A model generated the notes under the pieces. That model saw only the letters and a list, made by a program, of their open reading frames with translations, searched no databases and was not told the origin of the DNA. Shown here one piece after another: positions 10,882-34,854 of a stretch of DNA of 64,000 bases (the stretch's first letter is position 1; every line of letters starts with the position of its first letter). Position numbers and translations under genes: made by a program. The DNA lies in assembly GCA_963738405.1 (NCBI GenBank), contig CAVTWJ010000012.1, positions 1 through 64,000 on the forward strand. Direction: 5' to 3'. The DNA comes from a candidate division FCPU426 bacterium (GTDB lineage: Bacteria > Oederibacteriota > Muellerivitia > Muellerivitales > Muellerivitaceae).

Positions 10882-11039
10882 AACAAACCCGGTCGTTTCC
10901 GTTCGAAACTCATAAGATGAGATTCAAGATTAGCCGGAAAACCCCTGTCAAAGGGGAAGGGCGGCCACTTTCAATTTTTCTTTATAAAACCCAGCGAGTT
11001 TTTGAGATCTTGAAGAAGTTCGTACCCATGAGGGAAAAG

Positions 11040-11498
11040 ATGAAACGTCAGCTTATTTCCATGTTTATTCTTTCCGCTGTCTTAATGCTGTGGTTAGGAG
11101 GGTGCCTTACTCTTCGCAATGATTCAGCGGTGATAAAAAATATCGATAATCAGGATACCTTTCCTGCGATTCAGACCAACCAGGTTTATTTTTTTCTCTC
11201 GAAAGACGCTTTTCCGCCCGACTTACAGCAAATCCCGGTAGGAACCCTCTGGACACCCGAGAACAGCCAATGGACCTACGCCCAGGTTGTTGAAAGATTT
11301 CAGGAAAAGGCTGCCGAAATAGGGGCCAATGCGGTGGTGTTTGAGAGCCTTGGAAAAAACGAATTACTTTACGGCAACCTTTACTATTCTGGTTATGCCA
11401 CCGCTTACCGGCTGTTCCAGCAGGACACTCGAGTTGCTGCTGATTTAAGCGCCTCCCAGTACGGAACCCAAAGCCCAAATTTGCAGAAGGTGAAATAA
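11040..11498 (+). CDS. Putative lipoprotein
   Basis: MKRQ...LWLGGC lipobox; AAEIGANAVV motif reminiscent of YbjQ-like folds; start reassigned from 10917. Confidence 0.7.
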   Translation: MKRQLISMFILSAVLMLWLGGCLTLRNDSAVIKNIDNQDTFPAIQTNQVYFFLSKDAFPPDLQQIPVGTLWTPENSQWTYAQVVERFQEKAAEIGANAVVFESLGKNELLYGNLYYSGYATAYRLFQQDTRVAADLSASQYGTQSPNLQKVK

Positions 11499-11611
11499 GT
11501 CTGGGAATGGACTCTCTGAACCCAATTTAAATAATTTCGTAACGATTGCGTTGAATATATCTGCTGTTAAGCTAACCCAAACAAATCCTTTTTGAGCAAC
11601 GAGGAGATAGC

Positions 11612-12004
11612 ATGAAAAGAATTTTTCTGATTTTAGGACTTGTTCTGTACGGGCTCTATGTGGCTTGGCTGGTCCTTACCAAATATTACGGTTTTGATTA
11701 TGTGGGTCAATTTGGGCCCTTGGTTCCTGAAGGAAAAGAATGGTTGAACACCAATGTAAAAATGGACGGTCTGACCCTTTTCGGACTCTTCGCAGTTTCC
11801 GCCATGCTGGTTTTTTATGCTCTTGAACAAAAGAGCCGGTGGTTCATTTTTTTATTCGCTCTTTCCTGCTGGATGGGATCGGCCTACGGCTTTTTGCAGG
11901 GCGCTTGGCCTTTTGGCCTAGTGGAATGTATCTGGGGGTTCGTGGCTGTTAGGAAGTGGTGGATGACCCCAAAAACGAAACCGGCACCTATCCATACTCC
12001 GTAA
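11612..12004 (+). CDS. Small membrane protein (YGFLQGAWPFG motif)
   Basis: GAGGAG RBS; hydrophobic; the C-terminal ~70 aa resemble a widespread small membrane protein family. Confidence 0.7.
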   Translation: MKRIFLILGLVLYGLYVAWLVLTKYYGFDYVGQFGPLVPEGKEWLNTNVKMDGLTLFGLFAVSAMLVFYALEQKSRWFIFLFALSCWMGSAYGFLQGAWPFGLVECIWGFVAVRKWWMTPKTKPAPIHTP

Positions 12005-12010
12005 AACCAG

Positions 12011-12454
12011 TTATTCCGGTTGTGGTTTCGGTCGGAACTTTGAGAACCAATTTTTCTCCAGATATTGCGAAAGCACGCTGACCCCCATTAAATCTTTGGG
12101 TTTCGAAAGATAATCGTCCGCCTCTGAAAAGGTCGCCCGCATGGAAATTTCCTGGCCTTCCGAACCCGTCAGGATCACGACGGGAATGGGACTGAGTTTC
12201 GCGTCTAACTTTAATTCTGACAGCACCTCCCAACCGTTTTTGGAAGGCAACCCAAGATCCAACAGGATGATGTGAGGAAGGGGCCCATCTTTTATTCTCA
12301 AATAGTTCATAGCGTTCAAGCCATCCGGGGAAACCGTTAGGTGGACGGGTAAGTCGGAATTCTCCATCGCATGACGGATCAGTTCGGCGTCACAGGGATT
12401 ATCCTCAACTAGAAGAACCTCCACCCCAGCATCCTGGTTTAGTTTCATCTTCAT
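12011..12454 (-). CDS. Single-domain response regulator (Rcp1-like)
   Basis: VLLVEDNP, LLDLGLP, LTGS, SKP, terminal W motif. Confidence 0.9.
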   Translation of the reverse strand: MKMKLNQDAGVEVLLVEDNPCDAELIRHAMENSDLPVHLTVSPDGLNAMNYLRIKDGPLPHIILLDLGLPSKNGWEVLSELKLDAKLSPIPVVILTGSEGQEISMRATFSEADDYLSKPKDLMGVSVLSQYLEKNWFSKFRPKPQPE

Positions 12455-12948
12455 TTCGTCCCACCTCCCCCCTGCGATTTAATTAAGTGCTTTCCCTTTT
12501 GAATGTCCCACAGCCAGTAATCTTCAAGGTATTTCAAAAAACTCGGGTACCGGGACCAATCCCGAGGTTTCCGAAGATAGGCGTTCACCCCGGCGTCATG
12601 AGCCCGCCGCCAATCCGCGTCCTGGGCCGAACTCGTCAGGACCACGGTGGGAATGGAATTAAGGGTAGCCGATCCTCGAATCTCCTGAAGGACCTCATGG
12701 CCGTTTTTCCGGGGAAGGTTCAAGTCCAATAGGATGAGCTCGGGTCGAGGCGCGTCATGGTAAGGTCCCCGCTGGTGAAGGTAACCTAAGGCTTCCTCTC
12801 CGTCCCCCACGATGTTCAAGCGCACGCGACAACGGGAGCCTTCGAATAGTTTCTCAAGCAGGATGACATCGCCGGGATTGTCTTCCACCAGGAGTATCTC
12901 CAGTGGATTTTCCGCTGGGCTGGGTTTATCGGTGAGTGGGGTTGGCAT
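12451..12948 (-). CDS. Single-domain response regulator (Rcp1-like)
   Basis: ILLVEDNPGD, LLDLNLP, LTSS, RKP, EDYWL; ATG at 12948 after AAGGAG. Confidence 0.9.
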   Translation of the reverse strand: MPTPLTDKPSPAENPLEILLVEDNPGDVILLEKLFEGSRCRVRLNIVGDGEEALGYLHQRGPYHDAPRPELILLDLNLPRKNGHEVLQEIRGSATLNSIPTVVLTSSAQDADWRRAHDAGVNAYLRKPRDWSRYPSFLKYLEDYWLWDIQKGKHLIKSQGGGGTK

Positions 12949-13509
12949 ACGCACTCCTTCGCAATGGCCGGAAAGGGGAAGAGTCACGCCTGTTACCGAC
13001 TCCACAGCATTTTATCGCCTCTTTTTTTAGGCAATAAAGTCTGGTGAATCTATTTTTAAGGAAACCATTTACCAGTCTGAAATTTCTCGTGCGTGATTTT
13101 TATTCATTCCCAAACGTCAATATTTTAAAGGACCGGCGTGGGACACTGAACCTTGTTTCACGCGCGAATTAGAATTTCTATCCGAAGATGAAGCGTTTTA
13201 AAGCCTAAACATTAACGTTTTGAATTCACGGGATTCCGCAAAGGGGTTTGGGGGTGACCGTTTTCCAAAACGACACTTTTCGTGCCAAATGAATTTCTTT
13301 AGCTAAAAATGATTAGCTTTTAAAGGCGAGTTGTTTTGATGTCCCCCAAGTAAAATGAAATAGAGACAGGTAGCCATTAACCGACTTGGGCCGGTTTGCC
13401 TTTGCGAGAAAATGTTGGAGCAGAGCGAAAAAATAATTTGGGTTCGAATTGGAACGGGGAGAGGGATCGGGTTCGGATTTACGATCCCCCAAAGTTAAAG
13501 GAGGGGAGC

Positions 13510-13953
13510 ATGGCAAGCCATATTGGAATGAAGGAAAAGACAGTAGATATTCTTTTGGTGGAGGATAACCTCGGGGACGTCATGTTGATCAAGGAGATGT
13601 TCAAGGGTTCCCGGTTTCCCGTCCGGTTGAGCGTTGCGCGCAACGGGCTGGACGCCCTTTGTTACCTCCGTCGGCAGGAACCCTATCCTCAGGCGAAAGT
13701 GCCCGACTTGGTCCTTTTGGATTTGAATCTTCCCAAGTTGAATGGACAAGAATTATTAGGGGCCATTAAGAGTGACTCGGAGCTTTGCGACCTGCCCGTC
13801 CTGGTTATCACCTCTTCCAAGGACCCCAAGGACAGGGAGCAATCCTACCAACACAATGCAAACTTCTACATCGTAAAGCCTCCGGATATGCGGGATTACA
13901 TTGGAATCATGAAATACATTGAAGATTTTTGGCTAGAGAAAATTTTCCGGTAA
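13510..13953 (+). CDS. Single-domain response regulator (Rcp1-like)
   Basis: ILLVEDN, LLDLNLP, ITSS, VKP, EDFWL; ATG at 13510 after GGAGGGGAG. Confidence 0.9.
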   Translation: MASHIGMKEKTVDILLVEDNLGDVMLIKEMFKGSRFPVRLSVARNGLDALCYLRRQEPYPQAKVPDLVLLDLNLPKLNGQELLGAIKSDSELCDLPVLVITSSKDPKDREQSYQHNANFYIVKPPDMRDYIGIMKYIEDFWLEKIFR

Positions 13954-14215
13954 TTTAATAGACTGAAGTGGCTTTAGTGCGGCTAAAGGTTCGCCGAAAA
14001 AATCGCTGCGATAATTGTTTCGTTAAACCAAGATACCGCTTCAATCCTTCCATCCGGCTCAGTTCTTCGTTTTCCTCTTACACAGTCGGTTCATGATGTT
14101 TAACCAATCTGTGGGGCGCAAATCTTTAGCGATTGCGATAAAGTTATTTGAATTTAAAAATTCAAGTCACTGCTGACCAGGTCTCCTTTGAAGAGGGGCC
14201 GGTGAGGGGAGAACA

Positions 14216-16885
14216 GTGAAGCGATTGTCTCTTAGGTGGGTATTGTTTTTTGTGACATTGTTTATGGCCTGGGTGCCCAGTTCTATCCTCCTCGCCCAAA
14301 TTTCGCTGACCACCTACCATAACGACCAGGCCCGCGACGGCTGGAACCAAAACGAAACCATCCTGACCACCGCCAACGTCAACACCACCGAATTTGGAAA
14401 ACTTTTTTCCGACGCCGTGGACGGGCAGGTTTACGCCCAACCCCTCTACTTGCCCAATGTCTCCATCGGCGGAGGCACACACAATGTGATTTATATCGTC
14501 ACCGAAAACGACAGCGCCTATGCCTTCGATGCCGATAATGCAGGGGTTACCTACTGGCACGACAGCTTCATTGGCGGGGTCACCATGACCGTTTCCCAGG
14601 CCGATGTGGGCGGCTGTCCCCAGATCACTCCCCAAATCGGCATTACCGACACCCCTGTCATCGACCCCGCCACGGGCACGATTTATTTCGTGGCCATGAC
14701 CAAGACGGTCTCAAGAGGGGTCACCACCTTCACCCAGACCCTGTACGCGCTGGATGTCACCTCCGGTGCCGAAAAATTCAACGGCCCCCAGACGATCGCG
14801 GCCACCGCCCCCGGCACCGGCGATGGCGGCACCACGGTCAAGTTCCGCCCCCTGGTCTATAAAGAAAGGTGCGCCCTGGCCCTGGTGAACGGAGTGGTTT
14901 ACACCAGCTGGACGGGCCATTGCGATTTTGACACCTTGGATGGGAATTATTACGGCTGGGTCCTGGGTTACAACGCTTCCAACATCACGGCCCAAGTCAG
15001 TGTCTTTTGCGCCTCGCCCAACGGCAGCGAATCTTCCTTTTGGGAATCGGGCGACGGCCCCTCGGTGGATTCCTCCGGCAATCTCTATTACATCGCCGGA
15101 AATGGAACCTTTGATACCTCGGCCCCTGTTTCGGATTTCGGTCAGTGCATTTTAAAACTTAACACCATCGCCAACGCGGTCACCGCGCTGGATTATTTCG
15201 CGCCCCTTAGCCAGGCCGCTATGAGCTCCGGGGACCAGGACATGGGCTCGGCGGGCCAATGCCTACTACCTGCTTCCTGGGGAACTACGGCCCATCCCAG
15301 TCTTTTGTTGGGGGCGGACAAACCCGGCGATCTTTACGTGGTGGACGCCGACACCGGTAGCATGGGCAAGTACAGCACCACCGCCAACAATATTGTTCAA
15401 ACGGTCCTTCCGATCGGGGGAAAGGGCTACACCACGCCCGCTATCTACAGCAACGGGGTCACCCAGTTTGTTTATTGGGGGATGACGGGGGCGAAAATGA
15501 AGGCCTATGTCTTTTCTAACGGGCAATATGTGACCCCCAATTCCTCGGCGACCAGTGAAACCTATAGCGGCTCCTCCAGCGGATGCGTCCCCAGCGTTTC
15601 CTCCAATGGAACCACAAACGGCATCGTTTGGGGCCTTTTGCCTGGAACCCCGGTCCAATTGTGCGCCTACGACGCCACCAACCTCACCAAGGAGCTTTAC
15701 ACCAGCGCCCAGAACAGCGCCAGGGACTCGGCGGTCGCTACTTACGTCAAGTTCGCCCCGCCAAGCGTCGTCAACGGAAAGGTCTATGTGCCCACCGCCA
15801 GTAGTTTGGTGGTATATGGGTTGATTTCCACCGGGGGCACCGCCACTTTCACCTCTACGGTGACTCGAACACCTAGCCCCACACCCACGCTAAGCCCCAC
15901 GGTGACCTCCACCCCAACTCAAACCCGAACCACTACTCTAACCAGCACCGCTACCTCCACTTCCACGAATACTTCCACCAAAACAAGTACGGCGACCCCC
16001 ACAACCACAGCGACCTTTTCGATGACCACCACAGCCACCTTCAGTTCCACCAGCTCTCCTACCGCGGTTCCACCCACGGTCACCTTCACCGCCACTTCCT
16101 CACGAACCTCCACAGCGGTTTTTACGGCCACGCCAACCCTGACTTCCACTCCTACCGTAACCAGCACTGGAACCCCCACCAATTCCTTCACCTTCTCGCC
16201 AACGCCCATCCCTACGGGCACGAATACCGCGACTCCCACAACTTCCAAAACCTCTACCTCGACTCCTGTGCCGCCGACCTTCACAACCACGCCCGTTCAT
16301 TCCTCAACCCCGACCGCCATTCCCAGCTCAACCCCCACGGCCACTTTTTCCGCGACACTCTTGAACACTTTCACGGCAACTGCGTCTAGTACAAATACTC
16401 TGGTGAATAGTTTCACCCCTACTTCCGTGAACAGTTCCACTCCGACCTGGACGCCCTCCTCCACCTCCACGTCGGTACCGACTTCCGCCTACACCCCCAG
16501 CGCGACGCCTTCCACGACCCCCTCGCTCACACCCTCTCCCACCTTCACGCCTACGGCTTCTCCAAGCCTCGAACCCTCGCCCTCTGGCACCCCCACCGTG
16601 ATCGTGCCGGCCAAGCCTGTTCTTTACCCCAATCCCGTCAAGGGGGGAACCTCCGCCGAGCTTCAAGTCACCCTTTTGTCCGCTGCGAATGTAAGGGTGC
16701 AAATATTCACCTTGTCTTTCCGCAAGGTCTTTGACCAGACCTATTCGAATCTATCCGCCGGCGTCGATGACCTGCCGGTTTCTCTGGTCCATAGCGAGGG
16801 ACACCCCTTGGCCAACGGGCTTTATTACGTGGTCGTTACCGTCAACGGCCAGCGAACGCTCTTGAAACTGCTGATCTTGAAGTAG
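14216..16885 (+). CDS. Secreted protein: PQQ-like beta-propeller region, long Thr/Ser/Pro linker, C-terminal Ig-like sorting-type domain
   Basis: Signal peptide; TYHNDQARDGWN..ET, VDGQVYAQPLY, KFAPPSVVNGKVYV; ~260-aa T/S/P tract; C-terminal YPNP...LANGLYY...KLLILK. Confidence 0.85.
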   Translation: MKRLSLRWVLFFVTLFMAWVPSSILLAQISLTTYHNDQARDGWNQNETILTTANVNTTEFGKLFSDAVDGQVYAQPLYLPNVSIGGGTHNVIYIVTENDSAYAFDADNAGVTYWHDSFIGGVTMTVSQADVGGCPQITPQIGITDTPVIDPATGTIYFVAMTKTVSRGVTTFTQTLYALDVTSGAEKFNGPQTIAATAPGTGDGGTTVKFRPLVYKERCALALVNGVVYTSWTGHCDFDTLDGNYYGWVLGYNASNITAQVSVFCASPNGSESSFWESGDGPSVDSSGNLYYIAGNGTFDTSAPVSDFGQCILKLNTIANAVTALDYFAPLSQAAMSSGDQDMGSAGQCLLPASWGTTAHPSLLLGADKPGDLYVVDADTGSMGKYSTTANNIVQTVLPIGGKGYTTPAIYSNGVTQFVYWGMTGAKMKAYVFSNGQYVTPNSSATSETYSGSSSGCVPSVSSNGTTNGIVWGLLPGTPVQLCAYDATNLTKELYTSAQNSARDSAVATYVKFAPPSVVNGKVYVPTASSLVVYGLISTGGTATFTSTVTRTPSPTPTLSPTVTSTPTQTRTTTLTSTATSTSTNTSTKTSTATPTTTATFSMTTTATFSSTSSPTAVPPTVTFTATSSRTSTAVFTATPTLTSTPTVTSTGTPTNSFTFSPTPIPTGTNTATPTTSKTSTSTPVPPTFTTTPVHSSTPTAIPSSTPTATFSATLLNTFTATASSTNTLVNSFTPTSVNSSTPTWTPSSTSTSVPTSAYTPSATPSTTPSLTPSPTFTPTASPSLEPSPSGTPTVIVPAKPVLYPNPVKGGTSAELQVTLLSAANVRVQIFTLSFRKVFDQTYSNLSAGVDDLPVSLVHSEGHPLANGLYYVVVTVNGQRTLLKLLILK
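15840..16600 (+). repeat. Low-complexity Thr/Ser/Pro-coding tract
   Basis: ACN/TCN/CCN codon run encoding repeats such as TATPT and TSTPT. Confidence 0.85.
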
Positions 16886-16989
16886 ACCCGCCCGTTGGTA
16901 AGTTCGTTTTAGTTCCCAGGTCGTGATGTGTTTGATCAAATACCGCAGGCAGGGCCGAAACCTGGGCCCTTCCCATTGAAAGGTTTGGA

Positions 16990-19287
16990 ATGAAATTCCC
17001 CCGACCCGGTTTGACCGCTTCAGCCTTTTTTTTATTTTTTCCCTTGGTCCTTCTGGCCCCCCTTCCTTCCCAAGCCCAAATGCTCCTTTCCGGGAAAGTT
17101 TTGGATGCCTATCTCCAAACGCCTTTAAGGGAGGCGAAGGTTTCCGCCCAAGGGCAAACCGTCGAGACGGACGCCGCCGGAAAATTCCAAATATCAGCCG
17201 GGGACCCAACCTCGGAACTGGTAATTACCAAAGAAGGCTACCTGCCTCTCATGCTCCCCGTTCAGGGCTGGATGGGCGAAAAGGCGGTGGCCTTAAAACC
17301 TTCCAATCTCACCCTTCCAGAAGTGGTGGTGCGGGCCTATGGGGAAGACCAGAAGCTTTTGGAAACCCCCGGCAACCTCTCGCTGTTGACCGAGCGTGAC
17401 CTCGACCGGGGGAGCCGGGTCAACCTGGCGCCGGTGCTGAACGCGGTGGCAGGGGTGCGGATGGACCAGGCCTTCATGGTGGATTCGAGGCTTTCCCTTC
17501 GGGGCGTGGGTTTGACCGCCAACTACGGCATCCGGGATATTGGTATTTATGTGGACGGCATTCCCATCAACGAAGCGGATGGGTTCGCCCGTATGGAAGG
17601 CCTGGATCCAGATCTTTTAGGCGAGGCTCAGATCATCCGGGGGCCCGCTTCCAGCCTTTATGGCGCGGGCGTGGGCGGGGACGTGCTTTTTAATACCCTT
17701 CGCCCTCCGGCCGGGGAAACCAGCCTGGAAGCCTCGGGGCTGGCCGGTTCCTGGGGGCTTTACCGCTCCGAGGGTTCGCTCAAGGCAGATCTGGGCAACG
17801 GTTTTATGTTGGTCAACTACGGAACCGAATGGTTCAACGGCTATGTCAACCACACGGCGGATTACCACAGCTTCGCCACGGCCCTCGGCACCTTTTATCC
17901 CGGCGACAAAGACAGCCTGACGGTTCTCATCAACCAATCCAACGAGCAGTCGCTGGTGGCCACCGCCGAAACTTACGCCCAATTCACCTCCGCGCCCCAG
18001 GCGGGCGTGGCCGCTGACGACCTTTTCAACCTGCACCACAACGAGCTATGGACCCGGTACGGGGTCTCCAACCGCTACGTTTTCAGCGACCAGTGGGAAA
18101 ATGAAACCACCCTCTATGCCTCGTCTTTCCTCATGGACAGGGCCTTCGCCGACTCCCTGGCCTTCGCGGCGCTGTTGAACAAGACCATGCAAAACGCGGG
18201 GGGCCGCACCCAATGGACCTTTAAGACCAGCCTAACCGACCGCCTGGATCTTTCCTTAAGCGCGGGCGGGGAATTCATGAACCAATTCTCGACCTATAAC
18301 TATTACTACAACAACCACGGGGTCCAGGGGGCCCTGGGTTATATCCTCCAGGGAACGGAAGAACATGAGAATCTTTTTTTCGAGGCGGACGCGGACCTCG
18401 AGAAAAACACCTTCCTCACCACCGGCCTAAACCTCAATGCCACCAGCTACATGCTGAATTTACAGACCTCCCAATTGAACAACGCCGTTGGCTTTACCCC
18501 CACTCTCTGCCTTCGGGTCGCCTTGTCGCATGTATTCGACAAGGCCTTCTCGGTTTACGGGGATGTCAGCCAGGGTTTCTCGCCGCCCGATTTTGACGAG
18601 ATGAAAAACCCCTTCACGGGCGGCCTGCTTCCGAACCTTCTTCCCGAATTGGCCACCCAATATGAAATAGGCGCCAGGGGCCGTCTTTCGGACATCCCTC
18701 TCGGCTATGATCTGGCGCTTTACGATTTGGACGCGGTCCAGGAACTGGTCCAGCAAACCGTGAGCGGGGTGGCGGAGTTCGTCAACGCGGGCGGCACCAA
18801 CCATAAGGGGGTGGAACTGACCCTGTCGGAAAGCCTGGTGAATGATCCAACGCGATTCCTCACCCTTTTAAAACCCTGGATCGCCTATAGCTATCAGCAT
18901 TACGTCTTCACCCAATACACCAATAATGGGGTCAGCTACGCGGGGAACCAGTTAACTGGCAACCCGGAGAACCAATTCAATACCGGGATCGATATTGAAA
19001 CTCAGCCGGGCCTTTACCTTAACACCAACATTCAATTCGTGGATGCCTACCCTATCACCGACAGCAACAGCGTCTGGAACAATTCATTTGCCCTCTGGAA
19101 CGCCAAATTGGGTTACCGCCAAACGATCGGGAAGCAGATGAAGGTGGATGCCTTTGTGGGCGGGGAAAATCTTTTGAACCAAACCTATTCGGCCTACGTG
19201 GCTTTCAATGCCACCAACGCGGCCTATTACGAGCCGGGTGTGGGCCAAAGCCTTTACGGCGGTTTGAATTTGAACGTGTTGTTTTAG
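16990..19287 (+). CDS. TonB-dependent receptor with an N-terminal carboxypeptidase-regulatory-like domain
   Basis: Signal peptide; EVVVRA TonB box; plug motifs LSLRG, YVDGIP, IIRGPASSLYG; ENLLNQTY; terminal Phe. Confidence 0.93.
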   Translation: MKFPRPGLTASAFFLFFPLVLLAPLPSQAQMLLSGKVLDAYLQTPLREAKVSAQGQTVETDAAGKFQISAGDPTSELVITKEGYLPLMLPVQGWMGEKAVALKPSNLTLPEVVVRAYGEDQKLLETPGNLSLLTERDLDRGSRVNLAPVLNAVAGVRMDQAFMVDSRLSLRGVGLTANYGIRDIGIYVDGIPINEADGFARMEGLDPDLLGEAQIIRGPASSLYGAGVGGDVLFNTLRPPAGETSLEASGLAGSWGLYRSEGSLKADLGNGFMLVNYGTEWFNGYVNHTADYHSFATALGTFYPGDKDSLTVLINQSNEQSLVATAETYAQFTSAPQAGVAADDLFNLHHNELWTRYGVSNRYVFSDQWENETTLYASSFLMDRAFADSLAFAALLNKTMQNAGGRTQWTFKTSLTDRLDLSLSAGGEFMNQFSTYNYYYNNHGVQGALGYILQGTEEHENLFFEADADLEKNTFLTTGLNLNATSYMLNLQTSQLNNAVGFTPTLCLRVALSHVFDKAFSVYGDVSQGFSPPDFDEMKNPFTGGLLPNLLPELATQYEIGARGRLSDIPLGYDLALYDLDAVQELVQQTVSGVAEFVNAGGTNHKGVELTLSESLVNDPTRFLTLLKPWIAYSYQHYVFTQYTNNGVSYAGNQLTGNPENQFNTGIDIETQPGLYLNTNIQFVDAYPITDSNSVWNNSFALWNAKLGYRQTIGKQMKVDAFVGGENLLNQTYSAYVAFNATNAAYYEPGVGQSLYGGLNLNVLF

Positions 19288-21923
19288 CGGGAAATGACGA
19301 TCTTAAGCTTCTGTCTGAAGGTCACAGCCCCGTTTGAGTTGATCACATCCACCACGGCGATGTAATAGCCGCTGGCCATGCCGGATGCGTTCCAAAGGGT
19401 TTGTTGGGACCCCGGGTCCTCCTTAATCGTGGCCACCCTTTCCCCGGCGATATCATAAATTTGGACGCGCAGGGTGTAGGGCTGGAGCGAACTGAATTTA
19501 AAGGCCGTCTTGAACCCGTCGGAGCTGGAAAGAAAATTGGGGCAGGCCGAAAGGGTCCAGTGCTGGTTGGTTTCGCCAGCCGTGACCTGGACGATGCGGG
19601 TGATATCTTCCGTCGCTCCCGTCCCCTGGTCCCAATGGACCGAAAGAATGTAATTTCCGGGGGAAACATAAGGGCCGGAATCGCTAGTTCCGTTCCAGGT
19701 TAAGGTAACGGCTGTTCCGGAAGTTTGAATGGTCATTTGAACTTCGGAGGCGGGGCCTGAGGCACCTGGCTGGAAAGCGCTTTGGCTTAAAAGGACTCCG
19801 GTTAGCTGGGAACCCGTTGGGTCCTCCGTCCAGCCGGAGAGGTGCTTGACCAGTTCCCCTGCCTCGTTAAAGACGCTGGCATCCACCCGCAGGATAGGCC
19901 GGTTTACCATCGCCTGCCTCGTGACGGTAGTCACCACGCCGAGAGGATCGGTGTTTTTAATAACAATATAATAGGTTCCATTCACGACTGGATTGCCTGA
20001 GCCGTCCAGCCCCTTCCAAAATCCCAGGGAGACCCCGCCCGAGTATAGGATGATTTGGTTCTGGGTGCCCTTAAGCGTAGTGATGGGCCCTCCCGCCAAG
20101 TCCAGGCTCAAAACACTTTGTGAATATTTTCTTGTCCATAAGCCGCAAATGAGTTCCCCCGCCTCGTTGTAAACCCCCGCCTCAACCGTGTACCCCCCCG
20201 TCACCGCCACCGTGGCGGCGGCGGAAAGGGGCATTCCCAGACTGGATGAGGAAAGCAGGGCAGTGTTCACGATCTGGCTTTGACCCGGAACAAAGGAATT
20301 GATTTGGGCCTGGTAGCTCAAGCCGTAAACCCCAGGCGGGAGTGTGGGAGGAAGGTTCCAAACCAACTGGGAAGAGGAGGTCGAAAAAGTCGCGGTACCG
20401 GAAGCCGGCGGGGAAAGGCTTATGAAAATTTCATCCGGCGGTAGGTTGTCCGTGACCTGGGCGTTATCCAGTGTTCCCCCGTTCAAGGTCACCGAGAGGG
20501 TATAGGTGATCATGTCACCGGAAGAGGCGGAGCCGGGGGAAGCGGTTTTTCCCAAGGAGGTCCAGGGGGTGGCCGTGGGCGTCACCGTGTAGGTAACTGT
20601 GGGTGAGGGTGTCGGTGTTTGGGTGGGGGAGAAGGTAAGGGTTTGAGTCATCGTTACGGTGAGCGTGGCAGTGGAGGTGAAGGTGGAAGTAAAAGTCAGT
20701 GTTACGGTAGGGCTTGGAGTCAGGGTCGGGCTGTAGGAGGCGGTGGGGGTCTCCGTCGGCGTCTGGGTGGATGTAAAGGTGGCAGTGGAGGTCGGTGTTG
20801 AGGTGGGGCCGCAGAGGCCGGTGATTTTTCGCACGACCGAGTTGCCGTAATCCACCACGTAAAGGTCTCCGGTGCCGTCAAAGGCCAGGGATTCGGTGTG
20901 GTTGAACTGGGCAAGGGCAGCTGGGCCCCCGTCGCCAAAATAACCTGCCGCGCCGGTGCCTGCCATAGTGGTGACCGTACCCGAGGGGATTCCGACCTCC
21001 CGCACGACGTTGTTCATGTCGTCGGTCATGAAAAGGTTTCCGCCGCAACCGAAGGCCATGGTGCCGTTGTCGAAAAAGAAATCGGCCAGCAGGGCGGTGC
21101 CACCATCACCGGTGTAGCCTGGCGTGCCAGTTCCCGCAAAGGTTGAAATAACCCCTGTCGCGATGGAAACCTTCCGGATGACCCAATTGTTGAAATCGGA
21201 AATATAAAAGTTCCCTAAATTGTCTGGATCAACCATTTCACAGCCGTTCAACTGAGCCGATACGGCCGCCCCTCCGTCCCCCGTGTAGCCCGGCGTGCCG
21301 GTTCCCGCCACGGTCGTGATGATTCCCGTCGTCTCGCTGTACAGTCGCACGGCGTTATTGCCCGAATCGGCGATGTAGAGGTTGTTTTGGACGTCGAATC
21401 GAATGCCGATGGGGGAATCAATTTCAGCCGAAAGGGCAGCCCCGCCGTCGCCTGAGAAGCCTGGCGTGCTCGTGCCCACCACGGTGGTGATAATGCCTGT
21501 TGCCGCGTTCACTTCCCGGATTACATCGTTGTAGTAATCGGCGATGAAGAGATTGTTGTTGGAATCCACGGCTATCCCTGAGGGGTAGAAAAAGGTGGCG
21601 AGGGTGGCCGGGCCGCCATCCCCGGTGTAGCCGCCCAGGGTGGAAGACCCCGCATAGGTGCTGATAACGCCGGTGGCGGCGGTTACTTTGCGGATCACGC
21701 AATTTCCCGCATCGGCGATGTAATAATTACCGAAAGAATCGAAGGCGATATCGTCGGGCTGGTTGATTTCGGCCTGGTTGGCCGCCGACCCGTCCCCGGT
21801 GTAGCCGCCAATTCCGTTTCCAGCGGCGGTGGTAATGGTTTGTCCACAGGCGGAGAATAAACCCATCCCTGGGGCGAAGGTTATAAATAGTAACAGCCGG
21901 AAAATATAAATCTTTTGAATCAT
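19284..21923 (-). CDS. Secreted NHL-repeat protein with a T/P linker, DUF11-like domain, FlgD-like Ig domains and a C-terminal sorting-type domain
   Basis: Six G(Y/F)xGDG-type NHL repeats (YIAD...IRK); GDMITYTL...VTDNLP; VYNEAGE...W.G...GTY; C-terminal CPN...IYDIAGE...SGYY...K. Confidence 0.85.
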   Translation of the reverse strand: MIQKIYIFRLLLFITFAPGMGLFSACGQTITTAAGNGIGGYTGDGSAANQAEINQPDDIAFDSFGNYYIADAGNCVIRKVTAATGVISTYAGSSTLGGYTGDGGPATLATFFYPSGIAVDSNNNLFIADYYNDVIREVNAATGIITTVVGTSTPGFSGDGGAALSAEIDSPIGIRFDVQNNLYIADSGNNAVRLYSETTGIITTVAGTGTPGYTGDGGAAVSAQLNGCEMVDPDNLGNFYISDFNNWVIRKVSIATGVISTFAGTGTPGYTGDGGTALLADFFFDNGTMAFGCGGNLFMTDDMNNVVREVGIPSGTVTTMAGTGAAGYFGDGGPAALAQFNHTESLAFDGTGDLYVVDYGNSVVRKITGLCGPTSTPTSTATFTSTQTPTETPTASYSPTLTPSPTVTLTFTSTFTSTATLTVTMTQTLTFSPTQTPTPSPTVTYTVTPTATPWTSLGKTASPGSASSGDMITYTLSVTLNGGTLDNAQVTDNLPPDEIFISLSPPASGTATFSTSSSQLVWNLPPTLPPGVYGLSYQAQINSFVPGQSQIVNTALLSSSSLGMPLSAAATVAVTGGYTVEAGVYNEAGELICGLWTRKYSQSVLSLDLAGGPITTLKGTQNQIILYSGGVSLGFWKGLDGSGNPVVNGTYYIVIKNTDPLGVVTTVTRQAMVNRPILRVDASVFNEAGELVKHLSGWTEDPTGSQLTGVLLSQSAFQPGASGPASEVQMTIQTSGTAVTLTWNGTSDSGPYVSPGNYILSVHWDQGTGATEDITRIVQVTAGETNQHWTLSACPNFLSSSDGFKTAFKFSSLQPYTLRVQIYDIAGERVATIKEDPGSQQTLWNASGMASGYYIAVVDVINSNGAVTFRQKLKIVISR

Positions 21924-22102
21924 AGAGAGGCCCTCAGTCGATACCTGTTCCCCTATTGTCTCATCTTGGTTGTGTTTTGGGTGGAAGAGTCGACTTTTTA
22001 CTTTGGCCTAACCCGGAGAGCCTCTTGGGTGTTAAGCGTAAAACCCTAAGTATCTCGAGGGGTAGTTGGAACCTATTTAATTTAATATGTCTTCTTTTTT
22101 TT

Positions 22103-22762
22103 CTAAACCGCCTCTTGGTGCCGTAGATCCTTACCTTCCACCATGTAAATCACATCGGTGGCGATATTAGTGGCATGGTCGGCGATTCGCTCCAGATAGC
22201 GTGAAACCAGGATTAGATCGAGGGCCTGTTTGATCACGGCGCGGTTATCCAGCATGTAGGTGATGAGCACACGGATGAGCTGGTCGTTCAGGTTATCCAC
22301 CTCCTCGTCTCGAAGGCGCACCTTACGGGCCAAGGACGAATCACGATTCAACAGCGAATCCATGGAACCCTTAAGCATTTCCTGGGTGATCGCCACCAGG
22401 TGGGGGATATCCACGAAGGGTTTCAAGGGCTCGATTTCATTTAAGGTCAATGCCCGTTCGGCGATATTCACCGCCAAGTCGCCCATGCGTTCCAGGTTGG
22501 TATTAATTTTCATGCAGCTGGTGACGAAACGCATATCACCTGCCGTGGGTACGTAGAGAGCCAGCATCCGGTGGCAGGACTCGTCAATCTCAAGTTCTTT
22601 GTCATCGAGGTCACGGTCGCCCTGGATAACCCGGCGGGCCAGCTTGCTGTTGCGGTCCACCAGGGATTGGACGGAGAACTGGATAGATTGTTCCACCATG
22701 CCCCCCATCGTAATCAGGTTGGCTTTGAGTCCCGTAAGTTCTTCGTCAAAAGTCGTCGGCAT
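22103..22762 (-). CDS. phoU: Phosphate signalling protein PhoU
   Basis: LERMGDLAVNIA and LERIADHATNIA repeats. Confidence 0.96.
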   Translation of the reverse strand: MPTTFDEELTGLKANLITMGGMVEQSIQFSVQSLVDRNSKLARRVIQGDRDLDDKELEIDESCHRMLALYVPTAGDMRFVTSCMKINTNLERMGDLAVNIAERALTLNEIEPLKPFVDIPHLVAITQEMLKGSMDSLLNRDSSLARKVRLRDEEVDNLNDQLIRVLITYMLDNRAVIKQALDLILVSRYLERIADHATNIATDVIYMVEGKDLRHQEAV

Positions 22763-22928
22763 TCCATCCCCCTTTAGGTCGCATCTCGTCCTGCCAACAG
22801 TTTATGCCAAACGAAACAATCCAATGTTATTTCTAAGCAAAAGAAAGCTTGTTTCCGTCTTAATCTATATTGATTCTTACTCTCTGCTCCCTCTAATCTG
22901 GCCTATCAAACCGATAAAGGAGCACTGA

Positions 22929-23381
22929 ATGCCGCTACAAGAAGGCAGTCCCGCCCCCGACTTCAAGCTAAAATCCACCGATGGAAGCACCGTCGAATTG
23001 TCCCGTTTCAAAGGCAAGAAAAACGTCATTGTTTATTTTTACCCCAAAGACGACACGCCGGGATGCACTAAGGAAGCCTGCAATTTCAGGGACGACATTT
23101 CCCAAATGTTGGCAAAAGAGGCGGTGGTATTAGGCATTTCTACCGATAACCTGGAAAGTCATCATGCCTTTAGCATGAAGTTTCATTTGAATTTCCCGCT
23201 GTTAAGCGACCCGGACGGCGAGGTTTCCAAGGCCTATGACGCTTACAACGAAGAAAAGAAAATGAGCCGAAGGGTTTCGGCTATCATCGACAAAGAAGGC
23301 AGGATCAAGAAGTATTTCTCCACAGTGAACCCCGAAGTCCACAGTAAAGAGGTGCTCGGGATATTCAACACCACCTTTTAA
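22929..23381 (+). CDS. bcp: Peroxiredoxin, BCP/PrxQ family
   Basis: YFYPKDDTPGCTKEAC. Confidence 0.95.
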   Translation: MPLQEGSPAPDFKLKSTDGSTVELSRFKGKKNVIVYFYPKDDTPGCTKEACNFRDDISQMLAKEAVVLGISTDNLESHHAFSMKFHLNFPLLSDPDGEVSKAYDAYNEEKKMSRRVSAIIDKEGRIKKYFSTVNPEVHSKEVLGIFNTTF

Positions 23382-23489
23382 GCCCGTCGATTCAAAAATG
23401 AGCCTGGATTGCCTGCCGCCACGGCTCTATTAACTGGGCGCTATAATGGCCTTCGTCTTTTCCGTTACCGCATTCTTTTAGGAGGCCTC

Positions 23490-24602
23490 TTGAAATTTCC
23501 TATCCTGCCTTTTGTGGTTGTGCTTGCGATGGGGAGCTTCACCCCGGAATCTTCTTTGGGCTTTGACAACCAACCGCCCACCACCATGGTCAAAATGGTA
23601 CTCCGGGATATTTCCCACTACGCCAAAAACAACAAGTTCCTCTCTCAACCCAAAATCTTTTACCGTTCGGGCCTTCTCTATTCCCGCCTGGAATACGCCT
23701 TGGACCGCGAACGGAACCAGCAAATGATGGTGGTGGGGCATGAGCCCGACATCTACACCATCGACCGGGTGGCCAAGACCGCCAAGGCCATGAAAGACCC
23801 GGAGGGGGCTTTCCACTGGCCCATCTGGTCTTACGGGGAAGTGCCCGAATCTTTGGAGCGCCTGGAATATGGGATGGAATTCGATTTTTTCAAGAAGGTC
23901 AAGGCCCCTCAGAGCGGACCGGTAACCCTCGAAAAGATTCCCTGTGACCGCTACACCTTTAAAAAAGGAATTTACGAGGCCGATCTATTTACCAAGTTGG
24001 GAACCCAGACCCCGGTGGAGATCCGCATTACCAAGGGCGGCCGGGATGAGATGGACGACTTTTACGATGACTACGAGGCCAACCTGCCATTCGACCCCTC
24101 GCTTTTCAAGGTGCCTGAGGGCATCCAGATCGCTAAGGACCCGGAAGACCAGGTCGCGGACTGGAAAGATTTTTCACCCCCGGGAGGGGACTGCGCCCTG
24201 AAGATGCCGGGAACGCCGAAGCAACCCGACCCCAAGATGCCCCTGTGGGAATCCGACGACGCCGACCAAAATAATTACGCCGTCAGTTACTACGATGCGG
24301 ACAAACCGGTCACCAACATTCAAGTTTTTTTCAACGGGGTGATGGCCGACCAGGCACTGTCCATGAAGTTGAAGGCATCCGACATGAAGCGCCTGACCTA
24401 TCAGGGTTATCCCGCCTTTGAATTTCGGTTGTCCGGAGGTAATGGAGCCGATTTGCGGATTCGCTTTTGCCTGGCGAAGACCCGGCTTTACGCCTTGAAC
24501 CTGACGGTCAACACCGAGGACGACCCGAACAAGACCGTTCAACTGCACATCGACCCGGTTCAAAGGGCCCAGGATTTTTTCGCGACGCTGAGGATCAAGT
24601 AA
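23490..24602 (+). CDS. Exported hypothetical protein (two domains)
   Basis: TTG at 23490 after AGGAGG; hydrophobic N-terminus; FDPSLFKVPEG linker motif. Confidence 0.7.
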   Translation: MKFPILPFVVVLAMGSFTPESSLGFDNQPPTTMVKMVLRDISHYAKNNKFLSQPKIFYRSGLLYSRLEYALDRERNQQMMVVGHEPDIYTIDRVAKTAKAMKDPEGAFHWPIWSYGEVPESLERLEYGMEFDFFKKVKAPQSGPVTLEKIPCDRYTFKKGIYEADLFTKLGTQTPVEIRITKGGRDEMDDFYDDYEANLPFDPSLFKVPEGIQIAKDPEDQVADWKDFSPPGGDCALKMPGTPKQPDPKMPLWESDDADQNNYAVSYYDADKPVTNIQVFFNGVMADQALSMKLKASDMKRLTYQGYPAFEFRLSGGNGADLRIRFCLAKTRLYALNLTVNTEDDPNKTVQLHIDPVQRAQDFFATLRIK

Positions 24603-24711
24603 AAGAGTTGGCCTGTTACCATTTTCCTTAATATCACCCCCTAAAGGGGCCCTGAATTCATGAACCCTCTTTCGCCAGGAGAGGTAAAATAGACTTGTAG
24701 GAAGGCTCTCA

Positions 24712-25074
24712 GGTGGCGCCCTTCGAGGCGTGGCGGGGACTGGGGTCCCAAACCGATCAAGAGCCGGGTCGACAAAAGCCGGAAGGCTGGTAAGGGTTTC
24801 GGGCTGGCACCCTTGAGGGGCGCATCGGGAACTGAGGTTCCAAAAAGCGGGAAACCCGGCCTGGTACAACCGGTGAGTGGCTGGCGCAGAGTAGGTGCTG
24901 TAGCGTTAGTGTCGGGTTGTAAGGCAGGTGGAGTTAGTACAATCGTCGGAAGGGTTCAAGGGTTGCGCCGGACGGCGCGGGGCAGAGGCCCAAAACCAAT
25001 TTGGAATCCTGCTGAAGATATTGCTAGTGAAGTTTAAGCAGGTCGCAGTGGCTTGACGCCCTGGGGCGCCTACC
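24712..25074 (+). ncRNA. Large highly structured non-coding RNA, ROOL-like, compact (~363 nt)
   Basis: Ends pair in a long helix (GGUGGCGCCCU/GGGGCGCCUACC, GGCGU/ACGCC, ACUG/CAGU); about 10 internal helices; no credible ORF; TAAAAT upstream and a terminator downstream; motifs recalled from ROOL RNA. Structured ncRNA ~0.85, ROOL identity ~0.6. Confidence 0.8.
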
Positions 25075-25095
25075 GGCCCCGGGGCTTTCTTTTTT
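25058..25095 (+). terminator. Intrinsic terminator overlapping the 3' end of the ncRNA
   Basis: GCCCTGGGGC-N8-GCCCCGGGGC followed by TTTCTTTTTT. Confidence 0.8.
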
Positions 25096-25261
25096 CGAAC
25101 CCCTAAACCGACAACTTTCCCCGAATGAACCCTAAAGTCCCAAAAGATGAACCGAAAAGTGAGTTACAGGGCTAAAATGCTTTGATAAAATACGAAACGG
25201 TGGGTTGATAAGGTTTTGACAGGGTAGTTCGTCTTTGTGCAAGAAATATTGAGGTTACTAG

Positions 25262-27067
25262 ATGCTTCAAGGCACGATCGACAAGTACAAACTCATCGAA
25301 ATTAAGGGAAGTGGGACCTTTGGTACGGTCTGGCTGGCCGAGGATACCTGGATCGGCAAAAAAGTCGCCATTAAGATTCCCCACAACCAAAAAGAAGAAT
25401 TCACCACCCTCATCGCCGAACCCAAGCTTTTAGCCTCCCTCGACCATCCCAACATCGTTCAGATCCTCACTGTGGATAAAGCCGAAAACATCTTTTTCAT
25501 GGTCATGGAATATGTGGACGGCAAAAACCTGGCCCAGCTGATTTCCGAAACCACCCTGACTTATAAAGAAGCGGTCGACATCATCATCCAGATCCTCGCG
25601 GCGCTCCAATACGCCCACGAGAAAAACGTGATCCACCGCGACTTGAAGCCCGGAAACATCCTCCTCACGGCTGAGCGCAAGGCGAAAATCACCGATTTCG
25701 GAACCGCCATGATCCAATCCGGAAAAAACGGCGCGGGGATCGGCGGGACCATCTACTACATGGCCAAGGAACAGGTCTTGGGCCATCCTACCCCGGCCTC
25801 AGATGTCTATTCAGTGGGCGTGATTCTTTATGAAATGGTTACTGGAAAACTTCCATTTTCCGATGAAGTGCCCATGGCGGTCTTAAACAAGATATTAAAA
25901 GACGAGGCCCCCGCACCCCACACCTTGAATTCCGCGATCCCCAAAGAACTGGAAGCGGTGATATTAAAAGCCCTTCAAAAAGAAATTTCGAAACGATATG
26001 GGTCCGCCAATGAAATGAAGCAGGATTTGGAAAAAATCCCATCCTCGGTTTTGACCTCGCTAATTCAAGTAGGGAACCAAAGCCAGGAACTATTAACCCA
26101 TACCATTCAGCAGGAGGCCGTGAAAAAGGCGCCTAAGGAAACGGGAGACATCAACACCCTGCGCTACCAGGGCTACCATTACAAACTGATCCGAACCATC
26201 GGCACCAGGGGAAAAGAAGAAGGCAATTTCATTTCGCCCATCGCGGTTGCGGTGGACGCTCAAAAACGTTCTTATGTCTGCGATTCTATGAAATGCAATG
26301 TGCAAGTATTCGATTTTGAGGGCAAGTTCCTTTACGGAGTGGGAAAATTTGGGAAAGATTCGAATGACCCCAAAGATGTCAATTTCCTCATGCCCATTTC
26401 CTTAAGCGTGGACCAGGGCGGGAATTTAGTGGTTCTGGACGCTAAAACCTGTACGGTCCAGATCATCGGGAAAATGGGACAATTGATCACTAAATTCGGC
26501 GAACCGGCCTCGCCCACCACCGGCAAGATTGAAATCGGAACCGGCGGTTTCTTCCACCCCCAGGCCCTCTGCCTGGACGATAAAGACAATATTTACGTTT
26601 CCGACACCGGCAACCACCGCATAAGGGTCTTCAACCCCGCGGGCAAGGTCATCAACAAATTCGGCATTCAGGGCGCCCGTTTGGGCGAATTCAACAGCCC
26701 CGCTGGGGTGACCATGGACTCTTCAGGGAACCTACTGGTGGTTGATGAAAAGAACTACCGGGTGCAGATTTTTTCAGCCCGGGGCGTTTTCAAGAACAAG
26801 TTCGGCAAACGGGGAACGGGCCGGGGCGAGTTTCAAGCTCCTGTGGGAGTCGCTACCGACACCAAACGCAATATTTTTGTGACCGACAGAGACCTTCGAA
26901 TCCAAATTTTTGACTCTGAGGGGTATTATTTAACCGACTTTGGAACACCCCAGGGCAATTACAAAATCGCCCCCAAGTACTACGGCTTGGCCACCGACAT
27001 TGAAAATAACCTCTACGTGACGGATATCGCCAATTGTAGTCTCTTGATCTACGCCTTGAAGAAATGA
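25262..27067 (+). CDS. Hanks-type Ser/Thr kinase fused to an NHL-repeat propeller
   Basis: GSGTFG, VAIK, HRDLKPGN, DFG, DVYSVG; C-terminal NHL repeats; no TM segment. Confidence 0.93.
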   Translation: MLQGTIDKYKLIEIKGSGTFGTVWLAEDTWIGKKVAIKIPHNQKEEFTTLIAEPKLLASLDHPNIVQILTVDKAENIFFMVMEYVDGKNLAQLISETTLTYKEAVDIIIQILAALQYAHEKNVIHRDLKPGNILLTAERKAKITDFGTAMIQSGKNGAGIGGTIYYMAKEQVLGHPTPASDVYSVGVILYEMVTGKLPFSDEVPMAVLNKILKDEAPAPHTLNSAIPKELEAVILKALQKEISKRYGSANEMKQDLEKIPSSVLTSLIQVGNQSQELLTHTIQQEAVKKAPKETGDINTLRYQGYHYKLIRTIGTRGKEEGNFISPIAVAVDAQKRSYVCDSMKCNVQVFDFEGKFLYGVGKFGKDSNDPKDVNFLMPISLSVDQGGNLVVLDAKTCTVQIIGKMGQLITKFGEPASPTTGKIEIGTGGFFHPQALCLDDKDNIYVSDTGNHRIRVFNPAGKVINKFGIQGARLGEFNSPAGVTMDSSGNLLVVDEKNYRVQIFSARGVFKNKFGKRGTGRGEFQAPVGVATDTKRNIFVTDRDLRIQIFDSEGYYLTDFGTPQGNYKIAPKYYGLATDIENNLYVTDIANCSLLIYALKK

Positions 27068-33006: not shown

Positions 33007-34854
33007 TTGGACCATAGGAGGACAAATTGGCCGAAGCTAAAATCGCAGCGACTCCCGCGGATGCCCCAGCGCCCGAAACACCAGCCAGCCCCGGTTCCTG
33101 TAATGCCAAAAAAGGAAAGCGCCTTTATTAAAGCCGCCTCCCGAATCTTTTCTACGACTTTTATATTTGTGGCCGGTGTGGTCATGCTTTTGTTGGGAAT
33201 CCTTTTCAAAGTGCAAAACATTTCTTTGGGCCCATTAAACCAGGCCATCGCGGATCACCAATGGCGGGTCACTTATATTTTCGTGGGACTGGGATTGTTA
33301 TTCATCGGACAGGCGAGAACGCAGGTCGTGAGTCTTTATTCGGAAGAGGCGAGAAAAAATAGAGCCTCGACCCATAAATGGAAAATCCCCTTGGTCGTAG
33401 CCCAGGTCGTACTTCTTCAAGTGTCCGGGCTTTATGGCGCCTTAGTGGGTTTTCACGTCATCAAGGAACCCGTTAAAAACCTTCTTTTCTTTTTCTTCAT
33501 CGGCGTTGTTTTTCTCGGTTATTTTTTCTGGTATCTCATCGCCCATATGCAAAACCGCTACCAAACCCTCGCGGGTTTGAGAATAGCGGGCGTGAGCCTG
33601 ATCTTAGCCACCTTTTCTTTTTTCTCCTGGACCATCGGACAGTTTGTCCTTTTAAGCCTCTTAGCCGCTTTTTTTTCGGTTTTGGCCCTTTTAATTTCCA
33701 TCACCTTTGTTCCATTGGGTAAGGAGGAGCAAAGGGGAAATTGGCTTCGAGCCTTGTGCCTGATGGGAACGGTGCTTCTTCTGATCCCCATCGCCTTGGC
33801 CGCCAACCCCTTGAACAAAATTATCTCGACCTATGTTCAATTGGGCCCGGCCGCGCAAAATTTAAGCGGCCAAGTGGATCAATTGACCTATTCCCCAGAC
33901 AGTAAAAAGCTTGCCTTTACGCAAAAAAACGATGACGGGTGGTTTTTGGGGCTTTTGGACCCTGACGCGGCCGACAAAATGATCGTGAAATACCAAGCCG
34001 GCGATGACGCTTTCACCCCCATTTTTGTGGAGCGGGGGTCGGGGATTGTCGTCGATCTTCAAAAGGGTTCCGCCCGCAACCTCTATCTTTTGGATGTGGA
34101 GAAGGGCACCTTTAAATCCTTAACCCATACCGGCATCGAACCCCTATCGGGAGGAGTTCCTTGGTCCGAAACAAGCAAGCAATTTTTATACGTCACCAAA
34201 ACCGAAAGTGGTTATCAGCTGAACGCGCTCCCTCTCTCCTCGGGTAAAAGCGTTAAAATTTTCAGTTCGCCCAACCCCATTCTTTCACCTTCTTGGGTTA
34301 GTACGGGTTATCAAATCGCCTACGTGGACGGGATCTGCGAGCGGCCCTATATTTACGACCAAGAATTAAAGACCTCGCGCAAACTTTTTTCCGATGATGA
34401 AAAGGCGCAGATCGCCGCGGCCGACGGAAAACTCAAGATTGGTTATCCTGCGGTGGAGGTGATTCCATCCCCCGACGCCTTCCGCTACCTCTTCAAATGC
34501 AAAAAGGATGATGTCACCGTTTTGGAAACCGCCCTGGCCGACGGGTCCAAAGCCTATGAGCTGTACCGCTCCTTCCAGCCTATCGAACACCTGGCCTGGA
34601 TGGATTTGGGCCAAAAGATTATTTTCGAGGAAGCGGGCCGGCAGGCCATGTACTTGCGGCCTTCCAAACGGATTGAAATCCAGGACGCAAATCTGGGATC
34701 GATGGAAACCCTGATTTGGCCCCAGATTCCCCACCATTCACCGGCCCCCTCTCCGGATGGGGTGAAGGTGGCCTTTGTCGGGAGTTCCGGTTTATGGTAC
34801 CCTTCGATCGGTCTGCAAGAATCCTCCGGCATTTGGGTCGCGGTTCTTCGTTAA
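33007..34854 (+). CDS. Multi-TM protein with a C-terminal TolB/PD40-like propeller
   Basis: About 7 TM segments followed by YSPDSKKLAF and PSPDGVKVAF repeats. Confidence 0.8.
   Translation: MDHRRTNWPKLKSQRLPRMPQRPKHQPAPVPVMPKKESAFIKAASRIFSTTFIFVAGVVMLLLGILFKVQNISLGPLNQAIADHQWRVTYIFVGLGLLFIGQARTQVVSLYSEEARKNRASTHKWKIPLVVAQVVLLQVSGLYGALVGFHVIKEPVKNLLFFFFIGVVFLGYFFWYLIAHMQNRYQTLAGLRIAGVSLILATFSFFSWTIGQFVLLSLLAAFFSVLALLISITFVPLGKEEQRGNWLRALCLMGTVLLLIPIALAANPLNKIISTYVQLGPAAQNLSGQVDQLTYSPDSKKLAFTQKNDDGWFLGLLDPDAADKMIVKYQAGDDAFTPIFVERGSGIVVDLQKGSARNLYLLDVEKGTFKSLTHTGIEPLSGGVPWSETSKQFLYVTKTESGYQLNALPLSSGKSVKIFSSPNPILSPSWVSTGYQIAYVDGICERPYIYDQELKTSRKLFSDDEKAQIAAADGKLKIGYPAVEVIPSPDAFRYLFKCKKDDVTVLETALADGSKAYELYRSFQPIEHLAWMDLGQKIIFEEAGRQAMYLRPSKRIEIQDANLGSMETLIWPQIPHHSPAPSPDGVKVAFVGSSGLWYPSIGLQESSGIWVAVLR

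Follow-up and report, generated by a model that had tools for sequence, protein, structure and literature searches.

A G-rich, terminator-ended intergenic element as a candidate orphan structured RNA in an uncultured diderm lineage

We analysed a stretch of DNA of 64,000 nt, hereafter the window, in which a 397-aa open reading frame ends with its stop codon at 24602 and a kinase gene starts at 25262. The gap between them is 659 nt long (24603-25261, considered here on the + strand), practically the 660 bp given in the initial annotation of this DNA. It is the longest of the 25 intergenic regions of at least 80 nt that a crude gene call yielded across the window. The G-rich segment that had been described inside the gap was clearly seen. 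Calculated in 200-nt windows, GC content was 0.615-0.64 and GC skew was +0.23 to +0.29 at 24700-24999, compared with GC contents of about 0.42-0.55 in the flanks, 0.31-0.55 in the other intergenic regions and 0.517 in the whole window. A G-rich core of 358 nt (24700-25057, + strand), with a folding z-score of −2.52, is predicted to be structured and multi-branched. Measured from a TAAAAT box to a terminator, the element has a length of about 360-390 nt.

The genes next to the gap are ordinary chromosomal genes. Upstream lie genes for PhoU (22103-22762, − strand) and an AhpC/TSA protein (22929-23381, + strand), followed by the gene for the 397-aa protein (23409-24602, + strand). Downstream, a gene for a Ser/Thr kinase with NHL repeats (25262-27067, + strand) is followed by those for an FHA-GAF-cyclase and MutL. 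The 397-aa protein is a near-orphan: it matches no Pfam or NCBIfam family, and a search of 5.8 billion clusters gave a single relative (42% identity). It begins with a hydrophobic, signal-like stretch, and there are weak atlas leads (0.86-0.87) to NfeD-like and DUF7954/DUF7955 clusters, the DUF families being of secreted type. With no family and only these weak leads, the protein was rejected as a TnpB- or IscB-like RNA-guided partner of the element.

The TAAAAT box that had been reported at 24685 is present on the + strand (24685-24690) and, as read from the sequence, is a possible promoter of the −10 type. The best −35 hexamer for it, TGAACC, is poor (3/6, with an 18-nt spacer), and a promoter scan made no call at the box. 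A terminator after the element had also been proposed, and an intrinsic one was found at 25058-25095 on the + strand, with the form GCCCUGGGGC-loop-GCCCCGGGGC and then UUUCUUUUUU (pair probability 0.99). Its hairpin (25058-25085) has a 10-bp stem with 9 G-C pairs and is followed by TTTCTTTTTT. The terminator is predicted to act on the + strand only, and it sits exactly where the G-rich stretch ends.

No terminator was found in the stretch that leads from the stop codon (24602) to the element; the only other terminator-like site (24557-24569) is inside the gene. Because the upstream gene and the element are not parted by a terminator, the element may be only a 3′ UTR. It is quite possible that the element has no function of its own and is the long 3′ UTR of the orphan gene (23409-24602) or a spacer from the rearrangement that brought a 16.5-kb segment, described below, to this place, its predicted structure coming from its G+C-rich composition. 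The terminator would then simply end the orphan gene, and the weak −35 hexamer and the promoter scan without a call are in favour of this explanation. However, the other intergenic regions are A+T-rich (GC contents of 0.31-0.50), and a neutral 390-nt spacer with a GC content of 0.62 and a one-sided G excess would be unusual.

We compared the locus with those of related genomes. We aligned 38 of about 60 kinase orthologue clusters (65-93% identity) and scanned the alignment against genome contigs, which yielded 78 loci (1,173,300 nt), including 216,197 nt from 14 related genomes. The loci of these 14 genomes (L001-L014) are orthologous at 70-93% identity, and the other 64 loci are unrelated kinases. 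All 14 genomes are MAGs of uncultured organisms; their labels read 'bacterium', 'proteobacterium' and, in one case, Candidatus Firestonebacteria. Neither blastn nor nhmmer matched the element at E ≤ 1e-3 in the 78 loci, and nhmmer with --max at E ≤ 100 gave no credible match there; thus the collection of homologues with nhmmer that had been suggested returned none over these 1.17 Mb. We found no paralogue within the window, and blastn in 'distant' mode gave no match in 72,556 plasmid or 50,697 phage records. The element was absent from the corresponding place in all 14 relatives, whose loci cover 10 kb on either side of the kinase. Synteny with the relatives begins at 25162-25262 and runs downstream through the kinase, the cyclase, MutL and beyond. 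Because synteny breaks just 3′ of the element, none of the 14 orthologous loci contains it. Both this position at a synteny break in a species-specific segment and the lack of a homologue or paralogue in the 78 loci, the window and the plasmid and phage collections favour the explanation as a 3′ UTR or spacer.

In L001, the closest relative, with about 77% DNA identity in the genes that both have, the DNA upstream of the kinase matches positions 110-8596 of the window, which encode a GGDEF protein and PurM. In the window, purM and the kinase gene are separated by a segment of about 16.5 kb (8643-25161) whose right edge carries the element, and L001 lacks this segment here; we give this comparison of loci as context only. 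The segment carries genes for a CitMHS transporter, three unknown proteins, three response regulators, a TonB-dependent receptor, two T9SS-tailed proteins, PhoU, AhpC and the orphan protein. The initial annotation had placed the element in a diderm host, and this part of it holds because the window encodes a TonB-dependent receptor and T9SS sorting domains. By tblastn, no upstream gene of the segment was found near the kinase in the relatives. A link with a mobile element was considered and rejected: the segment contains no integrase or transposase, no att-like repeats were found at its ends, and the element had no plasmid or phage match. A flanking 9-nt repeat (ATGAACCCT) and the other flanking repeats are at chance level. 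Without an integrase, a transposase or flanking repeats, 8643-25161 looks more like the result of a rearrangement or an indel than like a mobile element. Where this block begins on the left, directly behind purM, a GC-rich intergenic region contains a reading frame of about 50 aa (8710-8863, + strand) with two CxxC pairs, which are zinc-ribbon-like, and a basic tail.

The kinase gene has a promoter-like site of its own, GTTACA-17-TAAAAT at 25163-25191, whose −10 hexamer is the same as the box of the element. This promoter and the leader that follows, AGTTACAG...TTGATAAAAT (25162-25261), are conserved whatever gene lies upstream, and their counterparts were located at 9901-10000 in L001, at about 1640-1680 in L005 and at about 3160-3200 in L008. 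For 12 of the 14 relatives (L002-L006 and L008-L014), the gene immediately before the kinase is MGMT-like, encoding about 190-213 aa with a PCHRV motif; it is missing there in the window and in L001, and L007 gave no tblastn match. Because the promoter and leader of the kinase are conserved in relatives without the element, the element appears to be a separate unit outside the kinase leader.

This result bears on the suggestion that the element is a cis leader of the kinase-cyclase operon, riboswitch-like or an attenuator. We consider such a leader improbable, although the element does lie upstream of the kinase on the same strand. The operon is intact in 14/14 relatives that do not have the element, 12 of which have the MGMT-like gene in its place, and in the window the conserved promoter and leader that belong to the kinase are still there. 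From the terminator to the start codon there are 166 nt, with the promoter-like site between them. Moreover, a length of about 360 nt far exceeds that of known riboswitch aptamers, and no riboswitch family in Rfam matched at E ≤ 10.

To estimate the coding potential of the element, we used codon log-odds with ten of the window's genes as the training set. In each of its six frames the element scored between −0.10 and −0.31, which indicates non-coding DNA, and the control set of 38 in-frame 405-nt gene chunks scored at least +0.276 throughout. The longest open frame on the + strand (114 aa, stop to stop) had one match among 1.84 billion representatives (E = 1e-6); it is spread over five stretches of a 1252-aa protein, and we judged it to be compositional. 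A 104-aa frame on the − strand had zero matches in the protein-collection search. Such searches with translated frames are a weak test, for even the window's own copy is absent from the collection as a predicted protein. When the whole gap was compared by tblastx with the 78 loci and the window, the only clear match was at 25156-25261 (the kinase leader); the matches over the element were marginal (best E 0.006). The frame searches, the codon log-odds and tblastx thus gave no sign of a decayed gene in the element, which speaks against a 3′ UTR or spacer origin.

We then calculated the folding energy of the element. The + strand of 24695-25095 had a minimum free energy (MFE) of −177.8 kcal/mol (z = −3.14), and 0/100 dinucleotide shuffles were as good. 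The − strand reached −133.3 kcal/mol (z = −2.17). Thus, the + strand folds far better than the − strand, which fits the earlier argument that frequent G-U pairs favour the + strand. With the terminator included, z was −3.42 (0/60 shuffles as good), and with the terminator excluded (24700-25057) it was −2.52 (1/60). The ensemble diversity of 24700-25057 was 40, compared with 87 ± 27 in shuffles, and 3/60 shuffles were as low. Values of z from −2.5 to −3.4 on one strand only, together with a low ensemble diversity, argue against a spacer or 3′ UTR whose structure comes from composition.

The effect of GC content was also considered. Taking 638 windows of 400 nt that together span the stretch, we folded each and regressed MFE on GC content; the GC-adjusted MFE of the element was −2.48 SD and would rank third among the 638. 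GC-adjusted folding was as good or better at about 58.6 kb (a terminator region of convergent genes) and at about 17.4 kb (coding). Because two other sites score as well or better, the folding signal is real but not unique, and this similarity to other sites is a point for the 3′ UTR or spacer. Folding of the element is moderately beyond chance, and its stability is suggestive, not exceptional. The strongest GC-adjusted folding in the window, −3.5 and −2.8 SD on the two strands, is found at 58600-58720, where hairpins between convergent genes (GGGCCCCCTTTTCTTAAAAGAGGGCC and others) look like a bidirectional terminator.

The predicted MFE layout, which is a single-sequence prediction, consists of three local domains and the terminator, all on the + strand. 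The 5′ domain (24717-24822) is closed by a 12-bp helix, 24717-24728/24811-24822, with a pair probability of 1.00, and inside it hairpins are predicted from the single sequence at 24736-49, 24754-71 and 24777-24805 (0.86-0.93). The central domain (24859-24929; pair probabilities 0.79-0.99) would contain GCCUG/CAGGU, UACAACC/GGUUGUA and a hairpin at 24880-24910 whose loop contains AG-UAGGUG. GGUUGUA has an alternative partner in UACAAUC at 24938-44, which is the pairing of the initial annotation. For the 3′ domain (24935-25026; 0.89-1.00), the prediction is a long irregular stem leading into a three-way junction, with junction hairpins at 24965-78 (loop GGAC) and 24980-91 (loop AGAG). The single-sequence folds show multibranch loops, alternatives compete with each other, and pseudoknots are outside the fold model.

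Repeated motifs were considered as binding sites and rejected. AGGUG occurs three times (24711, 24893 and 24926), and neither AGGUG nor GGA lies consistently in loops; by hand count there are about 9-10 GGA triplets, near the roughly 10 expected from base composition. An internal duplication was likewise rejected as a source of covariation, since the similarity of the two short stretches concerned, which lie about 160 nt from each other, is too weak (D1 70%, D3 80%).

The structure drawn in the initial annotation was a different one, in which the two ends of the segment pair in a long helix that encloses many others. Every complementary string that it listed lies where it had been placed and forms standard pairs, but the fold as drawn is not favoured. 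The list is nested, with 4 positions used twice, and as listed the structure has an energy of −94 kcal/mol. The best fold that contains all 77 listed pairs reaches −137.9 kcal/mol against the MFE of −177.8 kcal/mol; it is thus 40 kcal/mol less stable than the MFE fold and falls short of the average for shuffled sequences. The MFE structure shares just 15 of the 77 pairs. The end-to-end helix itself is at chance level in strength for ends of such high G+C content, and enforcing it costs 10-16 kcal/mol. Its duplex has an energy of −47.1 versus −39.0 ± 4.9 in shuffles (z = −1.66; 56/1000 as good), and an internal partner at 24791 does better (−51.3). The chance-level strength of this helix is a further point in favour of the 3′ UTR or spacer.

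The end-to-end helix (24712-22/25063-74) overlaps the 5′ arm of the terminator (25058-67) and rivals the local helix 24717-28/24811-22. On these pairings a leader of the kinase operon could be modelled as a switch. Pairing of 24712-24731 with the terminator 5′ arm would prevent termination, and its pairing with 24811-24822 would leave the terminator free to form. Both helices are real and exclude each other (11 bp for 24712-22/25063-74 and 12 bp for 24717-28/24811-22). However, the anti-terminator state would cost the 10-16 kcal/mol given above and is no better than chance, and we hold a switch of this kind to be improbable, like the leader as a whole.

We compared the DNA with the 4227 families of Rfam 15, using gathering thresholds for the whole window and E ≤ 10 with permissive filters for a region of 666 nt and for the 411 nt put forward in the initial annotation. 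At gathering thresholds, the whole window gave only two tRNAs (45527-45735). These are adjacent genes on the − strand, preceded by a clear sigma-70-type promoter (TTGAAG-N17-TATAGT at about 45840-45811), which serves as a promoter reference for the organism. At E ≤ 10 there were six matches, all far below their gathering scores. The best was HOXB13-AS1_2, a region of a vertebrate lncRNA, with 22.7 bits against a threshold of 40; a match to nuclear RNase P (8.7 bits against 28) is noise. Bacterial RNase P, tmRNA, SRP, 6S, riboswitches and group I and II introns were absent from the results at E ≤ 10, and ARAGORN, including its intron mode, detected no tRNA, split tRNA or tmRNA in 24400-25400. 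This agrees with the earlier remark that hallmarks of RNase P, tmRNA, SRP and 6S are missing. The element therefore appears, by comparison with these models, to belong to no described RNA family.

The initial annotation had read the element as a minimal form of ROOL (Rumen-Originating, Ornate, Large) RNA and had proposed a check against the Rfam models of ROOL, GOLLD, OLE, HEARO and raiA. Rfam 15 includes a ROOL model. None of these five families aligned with the element, even at E ≤ 10 with permissive filters on the 666-nt and 411-nt regions, nor did any reach a gathering score. Like ROOL, the element is non-coding and bacterial, has many predicted helices and is independent of any gene downstream. 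The sequence blocks listed as ROOL-like in the initial annotation, the many helices and one GGAA-loop hairpin (24777-24788) are what favours a shortened GC-rich ROOL member or another large ornate RNA of this kind. In Weinberg et al. (2017; PMC5737381), ROOL RNAs have an average length of 581 nt, so the element is about 200 nt shorter, and only 10 of their nucleotides are highly conserved, which is a poor fit to proposed conserved blocks of about 19 nt. The solved ROOL example in the preprint by Kretsch et al. has 659 nt and forms a homo-octameric, RNA-only cage. According to these two sources, ROOL usually occurs in prophages or phages, often near tRNA genes. In contrast, the element has no phage genes around it (Pfam and NCBIfam scans of 6-30 kb gave no phage or integrase gene), its nearest tRNAs are 20 kb away, and its host is an uncultured diderm lineage. 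Length, conservation pattern and context, as far as these sources describe them, all misfit. As far as the family model goes, the ROOL identity is refuted, and membership of ROOL or of one of the other large ornate families is very improbable. The main practical outcome of the analysis is negative, in that the proposed tie to the ROOL nanocage RNAs in an unexpected host fails.

A group I-like intron or ribozyme would have the right size and many helices, and AAGAUAU at 25015-25021 resembles what we take to be the J8/7 consensus of some group I introns. However, no group I family matched in Rfam at E ≤ 10, there are no flanking exons, the flanks are non-coding, and ARAGORN found no split tRNA or tmRNA in 24400-25400. 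We regard an intron or ribozyme of this type as very improbable as well.

A stand-alone, non-coding, structured transcript of the + strand, which the initial annotation had also proposed, is compatible with the folding, terminator, composition and coding tests. The element has a G-rich composition, a non-coding state, a strand-specific folding signal and a terminator. Our preferred reading, to which we give a probability of about 0.4, is that the + strand encodes here an orphan structured non-coding RNA, about 360-390 nt long and restricted to its lineage, which ends at the terminator and acts in trans. Within the same reading, the element may instead be the structured 3′ end of the transcript of the upstream orphan gene. 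Against an orphan RNA there are the lack of homologues in the searched sets, the species-specific segment with its adjoining orphan gene, the weak promoter, the lack of a terminator towards the upstream gene, a fold stability that two other sites of the window equal or exceed, and the usual outcome of such regions in the GC-IGR survey described below.

For the transcription, fold and function of the orphan RNA we infer the following. Transcription would start at TAAAAT (24685-24690) or come by read-through from the upstream orphan gene, and it would end at the intrinsic terminator (25058-25095). The G-rich body, with its many G-U pairs, would fold into three local domains and not into one fold closed end to end. 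An element so long and so heavily paired, and one independent of the operon that follows, would most likely act in trans, as a protein-binding or scaffold RNA; a short antisense regulator or a riboswitch would be less likely. It is rather unlikely, though consistent with this scheme, that the element is the first member of a new class of G-rich multi-domain RNAs of about 370 nt, which would act in trans as protein-binding or scaffold RNAs from a variable part of the genome in an uncultured diderm lineage.

CsrB (about 370 nt) and 6S are long protein-binding regulatory RNAs. Like them, the element is predicted to be stand-alone, terminator-ended and highly structured, and its length is near that of CsrB. 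Unlike CsrB, it has no repeated pattern of A(N)GGA in hairpin loops beyond the expectation from composition (hand count), and unlike 6S, its predicted fold is not one long hairpin opened by a central bubble. Rfam gave no match to a CsrB, Rsm or 6S family at E ≤ 10. If it is real, the element would be a mid-sized structured RNA from a candidate lineage in which, to our knowledge, no RNAs have been studied so far. Its value is limited for now, with a single representative and no gene association that hints at function.

Structured RNAs can be found by searching for long GC-rich intergenic regions, as in the GC-IGR method of Narunsky et al. (2024; PMC11109978). Being the longest intergenic region of the window and having a GC content of about 0.62, the region matches the signature that this method uses. 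In Table 1 of that paper, the outcomes among 4714 intergenic regions include 427 'Unnamed', 607 'Low-ranking' and 55 high-ranking, and the 'Unnamed' and 'Low-ranking' outcomes are by far the commonest for long GC-rich regions with few representatives. Like these, the element is long, GC-rich for its genome, without a known reading frame or RNA family, and has fewer than five representatives. In the terms of the method, it is an 'unnamed/low-ranking candidate'. Two features set it apart from that class, a clean terminator and a folding z-score that is both significant and strand-specific. The uncultured lineage of the host is probably not covered by such surveys. The second longest intergenic region of the window (33819-34365) measures 547 nt, has a GC content of 0.497 and lies within a stretch that is about 68% identical to L001.
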